The notes under the pieces: generated by a model
What the model saw: only the letters and a program-made list of their open reading frames with translations
Database searches by the model: none
Told to the model about the DNA's origin: nothing
Position numbers and translations under genes: made by a program
Part shown: piece after piece, positions 56,756-62,026 of the stretch
How the letters are laid out: each line of letters starts with the position of its first letter
Position numbering within the stretch: the first letter of the stretch is position 1
NCBI GenBank assembly: GCA_963665325.3
Contig: CAXXWS020000002.1
Coordinates: forward strand, 256,001-320,000
From: Alphaproteobacteria bacterium
Lineage (GTDB): Bacteria; Pseudomonadota; Alphaproteobacteria; Bin95
Length of the DNA: 64,000 nt
Direction: 5' to 3'

Positions 56756-57811
56756 CTAGTTTAGCAGCTTCGCGTCCTCTTCCTCGATCTCCATCTTCGC
56801 CTGGGCGATCGACTCCTCAAGCAGCTTCAGCCACTTGTCGCCGAAGCGCTCCACATACCACTGCTTCAGCGGCTGGACGGACTCGACGAACTGCGCCTTC
56901 TCTTCGGGCGTCGGCACATAGACCTCGCCGCCATTTTCCTTGAAGGCGGCATAGCCGGCGAGCGCGGTGAACTTCGGATCGTCGGAAGCCATCGACGTCA
57001 AATGGTGGAATCCGGACGCGACGACCTTCTTGATTTCGGGCGAGAGCCCCTGAAGGAAGTCGTCGTTCATCCACCAGAACAGGAACATGTAGGCGTGGTG
57101 GTCGAGCGTCACGCGATGCAGGAACTCGTGGAACTTCATGTTCACGATGTCGGTGATGCCGTTCTTGGTGCCGATGACGACGCCGGTGGCGAGCGAGGTG
57201 TAGAGTTCCTGCCACGGAATCGGCGTCGGGTTGCCGCCCATCAGGTTGACCATCTCGACCTGAAGCGGGGACTCGATGGTCCGCATCTTCACGCCCGCAA
57301 GGTCGGCCGGCGTCTTGATGGTGACGTCGGTGGTGAAGAAGTCGCGCCAGCCGCCGGTGTTGTTGAGGCCCATGAGGCGCAGCGTGCCGGTCTTCTCAAG
57401 CACCGCCTTGCGGACCTCGTCCATGAACGGGCTCTTCATCACCTTCTCGGCGACGCGGTCGTTCGGGAACATGTAGGGCAGGTCGGTGACCTGGATTTCC
57501 GGGAAGATGTTGGCGATGCCGCCGACGGTCGTGCCCGTGATCTCGCAGGTGCCGAGCTGGACCGATTCCAAGCACTGGCGGAAATTGCCGCAAAGCTGGC
57601 CGCCCGGGTAAATCTCGACCTCGACCGCCCCGTTGGTCTGCGATTCGACGAAATTCTCGAAGACGAGCGAGCCCTTGTGGTCCTCGTCGTCGGTCGAGCC
57701 GATATGGCAGATCTTGATGGTCGTATCGGCCGCGCCGGCCGCGCCGGCTCCGCCCAGCGCAACGGCCAGGCCGAGCCCGACCGAGGCCAGCAACTCTGTA
57801 TGCTTCTTCAT
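56756..57811 (-). CDS. dctP: TRAP transporter substrate-binding protein (DctP family)
   Basis: Signal peptide, VEIYPGGQL, DLPYMF, DLAGVKMRT (conserved Arg), PIPWQELYTSL.TG. Confidence 0.93.
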   Translation of the reverse strand: MKKHTELLASVGLGLAVALGGAGAAGAADTTIKICHIGSTDDEDHKGSLVFENFVESQTNGAVEVEIYPGGQLCGNFRQCLESVQLGTCEITGTTVGGIANIFPEIQVTDLPYMFPNDRVAEKVMKSPFMDEVRKAVLEKTGTLRLMGLNNTGGWRDFFTTDVTIKTPADLAGVKMRTIESPLQVEMVNLMGGNPTPIPWQELYTSLATGVVIGTKNGITDIVNMKFHEFLHRVTLDHHAYMFLFWWMNDDFLQGLSPEIKKVVASGFHHLTSMASDDPKFTALAGYAAFKENGGEVYVPTPEEKAQFVESVQPLKQWYVERFGDKWLKLLEESIAQAKMEIEEEDAKLLN

Positions 57812-57910
57812 TTTCTTCCTCTCCCTGGAAGTTGCCGAAACCGCAAGATTGCGGGGGTGTTCCGGCCGAAGGCCGGCAACCGCGGGGCCGGGCATCCTCC
57901 AAACGCTGCG

Positions 57911-59221
57911 TCATACTATGAACCCGGGCGCGTTCCTGACGAAGCCCAGCCAGTATGGCAGCGACATGGAAATGACCGGGAAGTAGGTGACGACGAAGAT
58001 CGCCAGGATTTCCACGGCCAGCAGCGGCAGCATCTCGAGTGCGATCACCTCGACGCGCAACCGCGAGATGCTCGACGCGACGAACAGGATCAGCCCCATG
58101 GGCGGCGTCGCCAGCCCGATGGTGAGGTTGATGCACATGATGACCGCGAAATGCAACGGATCGACGCCGAGACCCGTCATGGTCGGCGCCAGGATCGGGC
58201 CGAGGATCAGGATCGCCGGCCCGGCGTCCAGGAACATGCCGACGATCAGCAGCAGCACATTGATGAAGAACAGCAGCAGCAGCGGATCGCTTGTGATGCT
58301 GAAGAAGAAATTGGACAGGTGGACCGGCACCTGCGAGAGGCTGGCGATGGCGGCGAAGGCCGTGGCGGTGCCGATGATCAGCAGGATCGCACCCGAAGTG
58401 ACGGCCGCGTGAAGGAACAGGTCCGGCAGGTCGCGGAACTTCAGGGTGCGCAGCACGATGAGGCTGATGAACAGCGCATAGAAGGCCGCCGCCGCCGCCG
58501 ACTCGGTCGGCGTGAAGATGCCGCCCAGAATGCCGCCCAGGATGATGACCGGCGTCATCAGCGGCAGCACCGCGCCCCAGGCCGCCTGGCCGACTTCCTT
58601 GACGGTCGCGCGGCTGTGCGCCTTGGGGTAGTTGCGCCGCTTGGAGATGATCCCGGTCACCGACATCAGCATGAAGCCGACCATGAGCCCCGGGATGAGC
58701 CCGGCGGCGAATAGCCCGGCCACCGAGACATTCATGATGAAGGCATAGACCACCATGATGAGGCTCGGCGGGATGATCGGGCCGATGACCGATGAGGCGG
58801 CCGTGATGGCGGCGGCGAACTTGCGGCTGTAGCCGTCCTTCTCCATGGCCGGGATCAGGATCGAGCCGACCGCCGAGGTATCGGCGACGGCGGAGCCGCT
58901 GATGCCGGCGAACAGCATGCTGGTGACGATGTTCACATGCGCCAAGCCGCCGCGCAGATGGCCGACCAGCGTGTTGGCGAAATTCACCAGGCTCATCGTG
59001 ATGCCGGCCCGGTTCATCACCTCGCCGGTCAGGATGAAGAACGGGATCGCCAGCAGCGGGAACTGGTGGATGCCGGCGAAGGTGCGCTGGAAGAGCATCT
59101 TCAGGAAGATGGGCTTCTCGGCCAGCAGGAAGCCGACCATCGGCGCGAAGCCGAGTGCGAAGACGATCGGCATGCCGATGAACATCGCGGCCAGGAATAT
59201 CCAGAAGAAGGTGACGCCCAT
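57911..59221 (-). CDS. dctM: TRAP transporter large permease
   Basis: LLAIPFFILTG, GISGSAVAD, IIPPS, FTPTES, TPPMG. Confidence 0.95.
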   Translation of the reverse strand: MGVTFFWIFLAAMFIGMPIVFALGFAPMVGFLLAEKPIFLKMLFQRTFAGIHQFPLLAIPFFILTGEVMNRAGITMSLVNFANTLVGHLRGGLAHVNIVTSMLFAGISGSAVADTSAVGSILIPAMEKDGYSRKFAAAITAASSVIGPIIPPSLIMVVYAFIMNVSVAGLFAAGLIPGLMVGFMLMSVTGIISKRRNYPKAHSRATVKEVGQAAWGAVLPLMTPVIILGGILGGIFTPTESAAAAAFYALFISLIVLRTLKFRDLPDLFLHAAVTSGAILLIIGTATAFAAIASLSQVPVHLSNFFFSITSDPLLLLFFINVLLLIVGMFLDAGPAILILGPILAPTMTGLGVDPLHFAVIMCINLTIGLATPPMGLILFVASSISRLRVEVIALEMLPLLAVEILAIFVVTYFPVISMSLPYWLGFVRNAPGFIV

Positions 59222-59242
59222 GACTTGTGTCCGCCGGCTCCC

Positions 59243-59803
59243 CTATTCCGCTCTGACCGCGTCCTGCTGCGTGAGCGTCGGCTTGGCATTGGCCGGGTCG
59301 ATGACGCCCCGGAGCGCGTTGACCATGTATTCCAGCGCTATCATGGCGACGACGAAACTGCCGATCGGCATGCAGATATAGACATAGAAGATCGAGATAT
59401 CGATCGTGGAAGCGCGCTGGATGCGGGCGTTCCAGGTCATGAACGCCCCTTCCTTCACGAACACCACCATCAGCGCGATGATGCCGGCGAAGATCATCAT
59501 GATGAGGAACTGCCGGATCCGTCCGCGCAACTGGCCGAGGATCACTTCGATGCCGACATGCGCGCCCATGCGCAGCCCGACGGGCGCCACGAAGAAGGTG
59601 AGCCACACCATGACGAACTTGGCGATCTCTTCCGACCAGGCCAATGCGTCGTTCATCACGTAGCGCATGAACACGGCGATATCGACGATGATGAGCATGA
59701 TGGCGAGCAGGGCGATGGCAAGCCACTTGAACGCCACGATCACCCGGTCGTTCACCCAGGCAAGCCCGGTCTCAAGCCTTTCGAGCATCGCCGGGAATGA
59801 CAT
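59243..59803 (-). CDS. dctQ: TRAP transporter small permease
   Basis: RYVMN..WSEEIAKF..W..F, GAHVGIE; four TM helices. Confidence 0.93.
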   Translation of the reverse strand: MSFPAMLERLETGLAWVNDRVIVAFKWLAIALLAIMLIIVDIAVFMRYVMNDALAWSEEIAKFVMVWLTFFVAPVGLRMGAHVGIEVILGQLRGRIRQFLIMMIFAGIIALMVVFVKEGAFMTWNARIQRASTIDISIFYVYICMPIGSFVVAMIALEYMVNALRGVIDPANAKPTLTQQDAVRAE

Positions 59804-59898
59804 CCGGATGGCGCCCCCTCTCCACTCCGTCCCGGTCGAGCCTAGAGCAGACTTTCAAAGGCCGCAATCGGCCTACCGGAACCGGCTTGCCGAAACCG

Positions 59899-59927
59899 TG
59901 GCCGGAGGCGGCCGATACGCCTATGAT
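59899..59927 (+). promoter_or_regulatory. Putative promoter of the glutaredoxin-DinB/chrA operon
   Basis: TGGCCG-N17-TATGAT, followed by SD GAGGAGG (59944-59950) and ATG 59958. Confidence 0.45.
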
Positions 59928-59957
59928 GAGCCGCATGACGGGAGAGGAGGCATGCGC

Positions 59958-60710
59958 ATGAGCGAGCAGATCAAGGTTTTCTGGCGGCCCGGCTGAACCA
60001 GCTGCCTGCGAACCAAAGAGTTCCTCTCGGTCCGTGGGATCGAGTTCGACAGCATAGACGTGACGACGCACCCGACCGGCATGGACCAGCTGCGCGCCCT
60101 CGGCGCCCGGTCGATCCCGGTCGTCTCGCGGGGCGAGGAATTCGTCTTCGCCCAGGCGATCTCGGATGTGGTGGCCTTTCTCGGGCTCGACGAGGATGTG
60201 GGGCCGGAACTGACCATGCAACAGCTGGCGGCGAAGCTCGACATGGTGCTGGCGGCTGCCGCGCGCTATGTGGCCCAAGTGCCGGACGACCGGCTCGGCG
60301 ACAAGCTGCCTGGACGCGACCGCGCCTACCGGGTCCTGTTCCACCACATCTTCAACATCGCGGATTCGACCGTGGCGGCGATAGAAAGCGGCCGGCCGGT
60401 GAACTATGAAGACCTGACCGCGCTGCCGCCGGACGACATGCAGACCGTCGCCGACATCGTGGCCTATGGCGAGGGTGTGCGGTCGCGGGTCGCGCGCTGG
60501 TGGGAATCGGGATCGAAGCCGGACCCGGTAGATACCTATTATGGCTCCCACTCGCTGCATGAGGTGTTCGAGCGCACCACCTGGCATCCGGCCCAGCATG
60601 TCCGCCAGCTCATGCTGATCCACGAGATGCTCGGCATCGAGACCGACGGACCGCTCGGGGCCGAAGACTTCCGCGGCCTGCCGCTTCCCGAGCAGGTCTG
60701 GGACGGCTGA
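59958..60710 (+). CDS. Probable selenoprotein: glutaredoxin/NrdH-like domain (UxxC) fused to a DinB-like domain, 250 aa
   Basis: MSEQIKVFWRPG-TGA(59994-59996)-TSCLRTKEFLSVRGIEFDSIDV..GARSIPVV reads as a full Grx fold across the TGA, in frame with the track ORF 60060..60710; C-terminal LFHHIF and TWHPAQHVRQ His motifs; strong SD. Confidence 0.85.
60026..60044 (+). promoter_or_regulatory. Candidate bacterial SECIS hairpin
   Basis: CTCGGTCC-GTG-GGATCGAG 8-bp stem (one G:U) with an apical loop starting GU, 37 nt after the UGA. Confidence 0.5.
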
Positions 60711-62026
60711 GCGCGGAGACGCCGCTGCAGGCCGCGTCGGTTCCCTTCCGGGAAGCGTTCGCGGCCTGGACGCGGATCGGGTTCGCCAGTTTCGGCGGGC
60801 CGGCGGCGCAGATCGCGCTCATGCACCGCGTGACGGTGGAAGAGAAGCGCTGGCTCGACGAGCCGCGTTTCCTCCATGCGCTCAATTTCTGCATGCTGCT
60901 GCCGGGGCCGGAGGCGCAGCAGCTTGCCACCTATGTCGGCTGGCTGCTGCATGGCATCCGCGGTGGCTTGGCGGCGGGCATTCTGTTCATCCTGCCGGGT
61001 GCGGTCGTCATGGCGGCGCTGGCGGCGGTCTATGCGCTTTACGGGCGCTTGCCGGCGGTCGAGGCGGCATTCCTCGGCGTGAAGGCGGCGGTGCTGGCCT
61101 TGGTGGTCGAGGCGCTACTCCGGATCGGCGCGCGGGCGCTCAAGGACGGCTTCGCCTGGGCGCTCGCCTGCGGGGCGTTCGCCGCACTCTTCCTGTTCGA
61201 CGTGCCCTTTCCGGCGGTGATCGCCGCGGCGGCGTTGACGGGCGGCGCGACGGCGTTCCTCCGCAAAGGGACCGTAACCGGGGAGGAAGCGGCCCCGGCC
61301 CGCTCGCGAGCCGCGCCCCGCACAGGCAGGCTGGCGCTCGTCCTGCTCGCCGCCTGGCTGCTGCCGACCGCAATCCTGCTCCTCTGGCTCGGCGGCGGGC
61401 ATGTCTTCTCCGGCATCGCGGTCTTCTTCTCGAAGATGGCGGTGCTGACCTTCGGCGGGGCCTATGCGGTGCTCTCCTGGGTGGCGCAGGAGGCCGTGGC
61501 CGCGAGGGGCTGGCTTGCGCCGGGCGAGATGCTGGATGCGCTCGGGCTCGCCGAGACGACGCCGGGGCCGCTCATCCTGGTGGTGGAGTTCGTCGGCTTC
61601 CTGGCGGCCTGGCGCGAGTCCGGCGGGCTCGACCCCTTGGTCGCGGGGCTGCTCGGCGCGGCGCTCACGCTCTGGGTCACATTCGCACCCTGCTTCCTGT
61701 TCATCTTCGCCGGCGCCCCGCATGTCGAACGGCTGCGCGGCCGGCCCGGATTGCAGGCCGCGCTTGCCGGCGTGACGGCGGCCGTGGTGGGCGTGATCGC
61801 CAACCTCTCCGCCTGGTTCGCGCTCAACGTGCTGTTCGCCGACGGCGCGCGGGCTGTGACGGGCCCGGTCTCCGTCTATCTGCCGGACCCGGCAAGCCTT
61901 GACTTCAAGGCGCTCGCGCTCGCCGCGCTGGCCGCTGCCGCGCTGTTCGTGCTGCGGCTCGGCGCGTTCCGCACGCTCGCCGCCGCCGCGCTCGCCGGCC
62001 TCGCGCTGTTCGCGGCGGGACTGTGA
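60707..62026 (+). CDS. chrA: Chromate efflux transporter (long-chain CHR family)
   Basis: SFGGPAAQIALMH, LPGPEAQQLATYVGW, TFGGAYAVL, ETTPGP; conserved N-terminus lies upstream of ATG 60821, best start is CTG 60707 overlapping the upstream TGA. Confidence 0.93.
   Translation: MSAETPLQAASVPFREAFAAWTRIGFASFGGPAAQIALMHRVTVEEKRWLDEPRFLHALNFCMLLPGPEAQQLATYVGWLLHGIRGGLAAGILFILPGAVVMAALAAVYALYGRLPAVEAAFLGVKAAVLALVVEALLRIGARALKDGFAWALACGAFAALFLFDVPFPAVIAAAALTGGATAFLRKGTVTGEEAAPARSRAAPRTGRLALVLLAAWLLPTAILLLWLGGGHVFSGIAVFFSKMAVLTFGGAYAVLSWVAQEAVAARGWLAPGEMLDALGLAETTPGPLILVVEFVGFLAAWRESGGLDPLVAGLLGAALTLWVTFAPCFLFIFAGAPHVERLRGRPGLQAALAGVTAAVVGVIANLSAWFALNVLFADGARAVTGPVSVYLPDPASLDFKALALAALAAAALFVLRLGAFRTLAAAALAGLALFAAGL

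Follow-up and report, generated by a model that had tools for sequence, protein, structure and literature searches.

The DinB/YfiT superfamily includes the bacillithiol and mycothiol S-transferases, and to our knowledge most of its members have no known substrate. Redoxins of the NrdH and YruB types are reduced by thioredoxin reductase. According to Table 1 of PMC13188914, thioredoxin-fold proteins with a UxxC motif, in which U denotes selenocysteine (Sec), are the commonest bacterial selenoproteins, and a Sec glutaredoxin (Grx, PF00462, UxxC) is entered there as an experimentally verified family with reference to the Clostridium enzyme of Kim et al. 2011. Here we describe a locus at positions 59958–60710 of a 64,000-nt stretch of DNA (the window) from an Alphaproteobacteria bacterium (Bin95; assembly GCA_963665325.3, contig CAXXWS020000002.1, positions 256,001–320,000 of the forward strand). 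Sequence comparisons indicate, with a probability that we place near 0.9, that this locus is one gene encoding a 250-residue selenoprotein composed of a Sec-containing, glutaredoxin-like domain and a DinB_2 domain. Like the Sec glutaredoxin, the predicted protein has a thioredoxin fold assigned to PF00462, a UxxC motif at the N terminus of helix 1, and Sec in place of the attacking Cys. In contrast to the Sec glutaredoxin, which comes from clostridia or deltaproteobacteria, it derives from uncultured Alphaproteobacteria, it comprises 250 residues with a C-terminal DinB_2 domain, and its Grx domain scores nearer to NrdH- and YruB-type models. The locus represents a known type of Sec redox center in a new, unannotated two-domain architecture, and no new principle is involved.

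The gene is laid out as follows:

59944..59950, + strand: Shine-Dalgarno sequence GAGGAGG, 7 nt upstream of the start codon
59958..60710, + strand: complete coding sequence of the putative selenoprotein, 250 residues, terminal TGA at 60708–60710
59994..59996, + strand: codon 13, an in-frame TGA predicted to encode selenocysteine (U13 in the U-T-S-C motif)
60003..60005, + strand: TGC encoding Cys16, the presumed resolving Cys of the UxxC pair, in an invariant alignment column
60060..60710, + strand: truncated open reading frame (ORF) of 216 amino acids from a mechanical ORF listing, in the same frame as ATG 59958

A single frame extends from 59958 to 60710 and consists of an ATG (59958–59960), 12 codons (MSEQIKVFWRPG), the TGA, and then 237 codons. 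When the TGA is translated as U, the product is MSEQIKVFWRPG-U-TSCLRTKEFL..., with 250 residues in all. A first-pass annotation made from the sequence alone had described this Shine-Dalgarno sequence, the start at 59958, the 12 codons, the TGA at 59994, and the shared frame with ORF 60060..60710; all were found as described when the sequence was read again, and the read-through peptide given there is identical to our translation. An alternative in-frame ATG is present at 59952, but it lies only 1 nt after the Shine-Dalgarno sequence and is not kept in relatives, and therefore 59958 was taken as the start. All 30 related loci that were fetched have an ATG with an SD-like purine run, 12 codons, and then the TGA in the same motif, an arrangement well beyond chance expectation, and in most of them a GGAG-type run lies at an equal distance from the start. 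The terminal stop at these loci is TGA in the window's own genus and TAA or TAG elsewhere.

The in-frame TGA is conserved far beyond this assembly. When the read-through protein was used to search the genomes of 61 related species, full-length matches were obtained in 40 genomes at 48–96% identity, and every one of these 40 matches contains exactly one TGA. The TGA forms were recovered from 16 of 16 genomes of the same genus in addition to the window's genome, from 10 of 10 genomes of a second genus, from 9 of 10 of a third genus, and from 4 genomes of other families of the class; the remaining seven rows of the search are weak, glutaredoxin-only matches without stops. At each of the 30 fetched loci, the TGA is codon 13 and lies within the motif VFWxPxUTSCL. 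The window's TGA is also unchanged in contigs of two DNA sequencing runs (X1 and X3) from two studies, one of which is possibly the source sample. Within the genus (136 pairs), the ratio of nonsynonymous to synonymous changes (pN/pS) is 0.011 for codons 14–35, 0.15 for codons 36–80, and 0.20 for codons 81–250. Selection is purifying on both sides of the TGA. The first-pass annotation had raised the possibilities that the TGA is private to this assembly and that selection is relaxed downstream of it, and had proposed that homologs be compared at codon 13. Neither possibility is borne out by the 40 species genomes, the two DNA runs, and the downstream pN/pS values of 0.011–0.20, and the comparison at codon 13 returned TGA in all full-length matches and Cys in remoter homologs, with conservation on both flanks.

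The Cys counterparts were recovered from a large protein collection, which yielded 1766 relatives at E ≤ 0.001. All relatives above ~76% identity are fragments of 151–216 amino acids that begin after the TGA, mostly at a length of 209 amino acids, which bears out the earlier suggestion that gene callers truncate this gene. From ~59% identity downward, the relatives are full-length proteins of 250–267 amino acids whose source names are ‘glutaredoxin’ or ‘DinB family protein’ and which carry the motif VFWQP[GW]CTSCL. We aligned 30 Sec forms and 96 Cys forms (alignment A1, 126 sequences), leaving out 5 of the 101 proteins P0021–P0121 because of truncation or of an N-terminal extension that hides the motif in the first 40 residues. 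All 126 sequences have either U (30) or Cys (96) in the Sec/Cys column, and the other invariant columns are W9, P11, S15, C16, L17, P54, H130, E205, R206, W209, H210, Q213, and H214.

A scan of one genome per species across the whole collection produced 309 relatives. Among the best 80 of these 309, 79 could be placed by the motif, and the codon at the Sec site is TGA in 16, TGC in 60, and TGT in 3. Ten of the 16 TGA loci belong to the genus already seen, and six (L055, L066, L074, L077, L091, and L120) are from other alphaproteobacterial metagenome-assembled genomes (MAGs). The Cys forms are mostly from Burkholderiales MAGs, with a few from Alphaproteobacteria. In a quick IQ-TREE tree, the Burkholderiales Cys forms group together in a single, well-supported clade (57 members), and the Sec forms are spread over several alphaproteobacterial groups. 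Four Sec/Cys changes are needed on this tree, of which well-supported branches force only one; because the deep branches are unresolved, we make no claim regarding the number or direction of the switches. The Cys-type Grx–DinB proteins of Burkholderiales and other proteobacterial MAGs share with the protein described here the length (252–260 amino acids), both domains, 48–59% identity, the active-site motif, and the His triad. They differ in having Cys for Sec and in being without the GUG hairpin described below. No paper characterizing these Cys-type proteins was found.

The genome from which the window derives encodes the components expected for Sec incorporation, the presence of which the first-pass annotation had left to be checked. 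They comprise SelA (486.8 bits), an adjoining SelB (442.2 bits), SelD (270.6 bits), and one tRNA-SeC(tca). Of the 61 relatives, 40 have a TGA form, and SelA was detected in 39 of them, compared with 2 of the 21 others; because these genomes are kin, this co-occurrence is taken as consistency rather than as a statistical test. The same genome (G000) contains six matches to the UGSC selenoprotein family (NF041046), two of them at the curated cutoff, and each carries one in-frame TGA, so the organism appears to be a user of multiple selenoproteins. The matches are located on its contigs as follows:

C3:670881-671309, UGSC-family match
C1:260033-260458, UGSC-family match
C1:963596-964033, UGSC-family match
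C1:697462-697890, UGSC-family match
C3:1241125-1241547, UGSC-family match
C1:734931-735383, UGSC-family match

The formate dehydrogenase (FdhA) homologs of the genome contain no in-frame stop and could not be used as a reference for a selenocysteine insertion sequence (SECIS). A crude genome scan for a TGA followed by a hairpin produced 529 candidates, which a redox-motif filter reduced to 291; these are mostly noise, and only the UGSC sites among them were confirmed. Further sites in a redox-like context in this noisy scan, given as oriented indices, are C1 + 1044838 and C1 + 2156901 (both CVYUTTSH) and C2 + 126487 (WUPDC), which could be additional selenoprotein genes. The scan also returned repeated contexts, such as ARGMPEUTATTGA in more than 15 copies (C1 and C2) and EPGDGLUGARACL and LGEGAGUEAGGRP in several, and these probably belong to multicopy insertion elements or repeats.

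A candidate SECIS was obtained by aligning 33 distinct TGA forms over a region that starts 9 nt ahead of the TGA and ends 69 nt past it (81 aligned columns):

60026..60044, + strand: candidate bacterial SECIS hairpin CUCGGUCC-GUG-GGAUCGAG, with the loop at 60034–60036 (RNAalifold, covariation)

RNAalifold predicts a single consensus structure over the 81 columns, with the hairpin at columns 42–48/54–60. The stem has 8 bp with a GUG loop located 37 nt after the UGA, or 7 bp with a CGUGG loop at 36 nt when the closing C-G pair is left unpaired. Counted over all 8 bp, 92.8% of the cells are paired in the 33 TGA forms versus 41% in 63 Cys forms; at least 7 of the 8 pairs are formed in 31 of the 33 TGA forms and in none of the 63 Cys forms, which never exceed 5 pairs. 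The GUG loop is likewise present in 31 of 33 TGA forms and in 0 of 63 Cys forms. Compensatory changes occur at 3 pairs among the 33 TGA forms, neither the observed pairing nor the observed covariation score was reached by any of 500 shuffles, and structures slid by 1–3 columns paired only 19–61% of cells. Folded alone, the hairpin has a free energy of −10.1 kcal/mol, which was equaled by 1 of 200 shuffles.

Codon usage in this region is also constrained. All 17 genes from the genus share one nucleotide sequence over codons 21–29, whereas their flanking codons vary. Arg26 is encoded by CGT in all 30 Sec genes, compared with a CGT share of 8.0% at their other Arg codons, and codon 27 is GGG in 29 of 30 versus a share of 16.6%. 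Synonymous divergence (pS) within the genus is lower in the SECIS zone (0.21) than further downstream (0.30–0.32). The bacterial SECIS (bSECIS) model presented in Figure 2 of PMC13188914 specifies a loop of 3–9 nt, a stem of 4–16 bp, a G in the first two loop positions, a distance of 16–37 nt from the UGA, and a minimum free energy of ≤ −7.5 kcal/mol, and the hairpin at 60026–60044 falls within every one of these limits as given there. In one genus (L036, L037, and L039–L042), the GUG hairpin is accompanied by another small hairpin, CCUUC-GUGU-GAAGG, which lies only 13 nt downstream of the UGA (A2 columns 21–34).

Several observations weigh against the selenoprotein reading and the role of this hairpin within it. 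At 36–37 nt, the spacing lies at the upper end of the published range of 16–37 nt, and in the crude scan two of the genome's UGSC genes have putative hairpins at ~18–19 nt. The hairpin emerged only from the cross-sequence comparison: a single-sequence fold of 57 nt favors another structure that is indistinguishable from shuffles (z −1.1), and a fold of 86 nt around the TGA is no better than shuffles (z +0.58). A scan of 59800–60300 against Rfam at E ≤ 10 returned no SECIS family and three chance-level snoRNA matches. Moreover, 2 of the 33 TGA forms (L074 and L077) are without the GUG hairpin, and the substitute hairpin CGAAAGA-GUU-UCUUUCG that they offer (positions 184–200 of L074 and the same columns of L077), 23 nt after the UGA, has a free energy of just −5.4 kcal/mol; in this lineage the SECIS may have changed its position, or some other element may serve. 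SelA was not found in one genome with a TGA form (G047), which is 77% complete. Codons 2–12 have a pN/pS of 0.48 at a low pS (0.10), with the changes falling mainly at residues 2–6. Finally, two RNA-library runs (X15 and X16) contain a contig of a relative that is ~94% identical from 59966 onward. This contig begins only 28 nt ahead of the TGA and does not bridge it, and RNA libraries may hold carried-over DNA, so these contigs were not taken as evidence of expression. The X15 and X16 data carry different study codes but agree exactly in their contigs, depths, and differences, so they probably represent a single data set deposited twice.

We weighed three other explanations of the TGA against this evidence. 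If it were a true stop, a DinB protein of ~209–216 amino acids would be made from an internal start (GTG 60060 or the ATG of MDQL...), and the upstream codons would be a short leader ORF or untranslated. Such a product is the one reported by the mechanical ORF listing and by public gene callers, and under translation table 11 codons 1–12 do become a separate short ORF. However, this protein would begin in the middle of a thioredoxin fold, without strand 1 and the active-site helix, and the internal starts are not conserved in the Cys forms. A true stop also leaves unexplained why residues on either side of the TGA (W9 and P11 before it; S15, C16, and L17 after it) do not vary across 126 sequences, including uninterrupted Cys forms, why pN/pS is 0.011 at codons 14–35, and why the ATG and Shine-Dalgarno sequence are kept 12 codons ahead of the TGA at 30 of 30 loci. 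We therefore regard a true stop as extremely improbable.

Read-through of the UGA without Sec, by a near-cognate Trp or Cys or another suppressor, would make the protein full-length but not a selenoprotein. The hairpin does lie farther from the UGA than in the classical fdhF gene of E. coli, which is what this explanation has in its favor. It is nevertheless very improbable, since the aligned residue in all 96 uninterrupted A1 proteins is Cys, the standard counterpart of Sec, since SelA tracks the TGA form (39 of 40 versus 2 of 21 genomes), since a hairpin that fits the bSECIS model and shows compensatory changes is kept only in TGA forms, and since in the genus this gene itself terminates with TGA as its ordinary stop. 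A nonsense change in a Cys-type Grx–DinB gene, either in a pseudogene or through an assembly or sequencing error, has a vanishingly small probability. Although a single base substitution is enough to convert TGC or TGT to TGA, the TGA recurs in 40 species genomes across 48–96% protein identity, at the six further loci from other alphaproteobacterial MAGs, and in the contigs of two DNA runs, each from a different study (one maybe the source sample), and it is followed by a sequence under strong purifying selection. The preferred reading as a selenoprotein, which the first-pass annotation had proposed in the form of a Sec-x-x-Cys Grx–DinB fusion, is supported by the conserved TGA, the Cys counterparts, the Sec machinery, and the hairpin specific to TGA forms.

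The two domains and their conserved residues are encoded as follows:

59958..60182, + strand: glutaredoxin/NrdH-like thioredoxin-fold domain, residues 1–75 (Pfam PF00462, Foldseek, and PDB sequence matches)
60117-60119, + strand: codon of cis-Pro54, invariant
60216..60707, + strand: DinB_2/YfiT-like four-helix-bundle domain, residues ~87–250 (Pfam PF12867 and Foldseek)
60345-60347 (H130), 60585-60587 (H210), and 60597-60599 (H214), + strand: invariant His codons

The Pfam Glutaredoxin model PF00462 matches residues 5–63 with 41.2 bits (gathering cutoff 22.9), with the TGA inside the match, and DinB_2 (PF12867) matches residues 128–218 with 31.8 bits (gathering cutoff 24.8). Together with this score, U13xxC16 ahead of modeled helix 14–25 and the invariant P54 place the first domain in PF00462. 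An AlphaFold2 model built from the 126-sequence alignment has a mean predicted local distance difference test (pLDDT) value of 95.2 and a predicted TM-score (pTM) of 0.92. In this model, residues 5–74 form a β-α-β-α-β-β-α thioredoxin fold with the UxxC just before helix 14–25, and long helices follow. In a Foldseek comparison with the PDB, the N-terminal part matched the thioredoxin-like protein BC3987 (3zit, TMt 0.87), and the C-terminal part matched 6iz2 (TMt 0.82–0.83, root mean square deviation (rmsd) 2.7 Å), 2f22 (TMt 0.75), and 2qe9 (TMt 0.67). The two-domain architecture put forward in the first-pass annotation is thus upheld by Pfam, the model, and Foldseek, as is its placement of the TGA at the nucleophilic Cys of a Grx/NrdH motif with a cis-Pro loop, given U13-T-S-C16, cis-Pro54, and a Pfam match that spans the TGA.

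Profile comparison with solved sequences identified 7c10 ‘Glutaredoxin’ (2.9e-10), 3zij/3zit, and NrdH 1h75. NrdH-redoxin, BC3987 (3zij/3zit), and the YruB-family redoxins provide the top sequence and fold matches to residues 1–80, but unlike the present protein they have only 75–85 residues, no second domain, and a CxxC motif. None of the NCBIfam models matched the read-through product at its curated cutoff; the best scores were those of NrdH (TIGR02194/NF007657; 44.6 versus 85.75 and 36.8 versus 131) and of the YruB family (40.9 versus 88.55). By these scores, the Grx domain resembles NrdH yet falls outside the NrdH-redoxin family. The UXX-star glutaredoxin-like selenoproteins (NF041212, NF041211, NF047338, and NF041114) were considered and rejected, with a best score of 33.1 versus 66 bits and with their Sec located 3 residues from the C terminus, compared with residue 13 of 250 here. 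The DinB domain resembles DR0053 (6iz2), BH3987 (2f22), and YizA (2qe9) in its four-helix bundle (TMt 0.67–0.83) and in the pattern of three conserved His residues, but identity is only 14% and those proteins have no fused redoxin or Sec. Canonical glutathione S-transferases (GSTs) are the top whole-length Foldseek matches by E-value (~1e-4) and also have an N-terminal thioredoxin fold followed by an all-helical domain. However, no Pfam GST match was found, the helical domain here is a DinB bundle, and the TM-scores are 0.25–0.38 with an rmsd of 10–16 Å, so the likeness is an analogy rather than membership, and a canonical GST was rejected. The high pTM of the model suggests a fixed domain arrangement that would be GST-like in logic, not in fold.

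A mechanism can be proposed on the basis of these relationships. The UGA at 59994 would be recoded as Sec by SelA, SelB, SelD, and tRNA-Sec, for which the support is comparative, and the conserved hairpin at 60026–60044 is the most likely site of SelB recruitment. The redox center, U13-T-S-C16, would lie where helix 1 begins and face cis-Pro54. By analogy with the families concerned, the U13 selenolate is predicted to be the attacking nucleophile, with a disulfide, sulfenate, or electrophile as its target, and to form a selenenylsulfide with C16. The His triad of the DinB domain may bind a divalent metal, as in the thiol transferases of the DinB superfamily. The two domains could then act as one enzyme, in which the DinB site holds an oxidized or electrophilic substrate or a low-molecular-weight thiol and the Sec/Cys pair performs the reducing or nucleophilic chemistry. 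Rereduction might occur by thioredoxin reductase, as for NrdH-type redoxins, or by glutathione, and the NrdH-like character suggests the former.

We put forward a role as a redox or thiol-transfer enzyme only tentatively, at less than even odds and by analogy. Three points count against this functional proposal. The three His residues are invariant in 126 of 126 aligned sequences, but their identity as metal ligands is an assumption that we carry over from the DinB family. Profile search revealed no solved DinB sequence relative at E ≤ 1. In addition, a Pfam survey of 20 chosen flanking ORFs at 11 loci found no neighbor common to different lineages. A more elaborate possibility, which we consider doubtful, is that the protein is the first selenoenzyme of the DinB superfamily, in which a bound selenolate beside the metal site replaces bacillithiol, mycothiol, or glutathione; it would then be a self-contained GST-like detoxifying or reducing enzyme, maybe coupled in this genus to a chromate-family transporter.

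The first-pass annotation knew of no characterized Sec-containing Grx–DinB fusion, and this agrees with the selenoprotein tables, NCBIfam models, and literature covered here. There is no DinB-domain protein among the 119 families in Table 1 of PMC13188914 (2026), and ‘DinB’ has 0 occurrences in the texts of PMC13188914, PMC2398784, PMC13326102, and PMC12013277 (a review and the papers on the GOS selenoproteome, BSepDB, and deep-Sep), the supplementary tables of which lay outside this coverage. A full-text literature search combining DinB with selenoprotein terms returned no paper on a DinB-type selenoprotein; the gene may sit under ‘Grx’ or ‘Grx-like’ in supplements. The ‘Grx-like’ class of PMC2398784 contains 42 Sec sequences and could overlap with the Grx–DinB family.

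Because its close relatives are deposited as fragments and no NCBIfam model captures it, this selenoprotein family, which occurs in no fewer than 40 species within an uncultured group of Alphaproteobacteria and in several other lineages, is invisible to standard pipelines. The Grx–DinB gene is systematically misannotated. It links Sec-based thiol chemistry with the DinB/YfiT superfamily, and the fused UxxC redoxin argues for redox or thiol-transfer chemistry in the attached DinB domain. The natural Sec/Cys pairs provide ready material on the contribution of Sec, and the hairpin, which is conserved across genera at the far end of the accepted spacing, offers a test case for SECIS prediction models.

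The gene is flanked by two transport loci:

56756-59803, − strand: divergent tripartite ATP-independent periplasmic (TRAP) transporter operon, upstream (DctQ identified by Pfam; DctP-like and DctM-like from translations only)
56756-57895, − strand: DctP-like
57911-59221, − strand: DctM-like
59243-59803, − strand: DctQ
60707..62026, + strand: chromate-transporter gene chrA, downstream, with a frame that overlaps the selenoprotein stop as C-TGA and a first canonical start at 60821

The neighboring domains vary across lineages and include DctQ/ChrA, GST_C/DUF1611, AMP-binding, Cu/Zn superoxide dismutase/2-hydroxyacid dehydrogenase, thiolase/Asp dehydrogenase, old yellow enzyme/luciferase-like, Dus/ApbA, and others. 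Because neighbors differ in every lineage sampled, the context gives no functional lead outside the genus. All-against-all ORF clustering for conserved neighbors was abandoned, as it was swamped by spurious ORFs of high GC content. Linkage of chrA to the selenoprotein gene is found only within the window's own genus. The chrA ATG at 60821 lies inside the Pfam domain, and the product that begins there matches only from profile position 25. No ATG, GTG, or TTG precedes the conserved N terminus in 14 of 17 genomes of the genus (L013–L029; the marker was placed in 16, not in L016), and the other three offer as canonical starts only a GTG (77 or 81 codons upstream) or a TTG (9 codons upstream). The chrA frame crosses the selenoprotein stop (GGC-TGA read as C-TGA) in the 16 placed genomes. 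This arrangement suggests that chrA may use CTG or another noncanonical start, with translational coupling to the selenoprotein gene.

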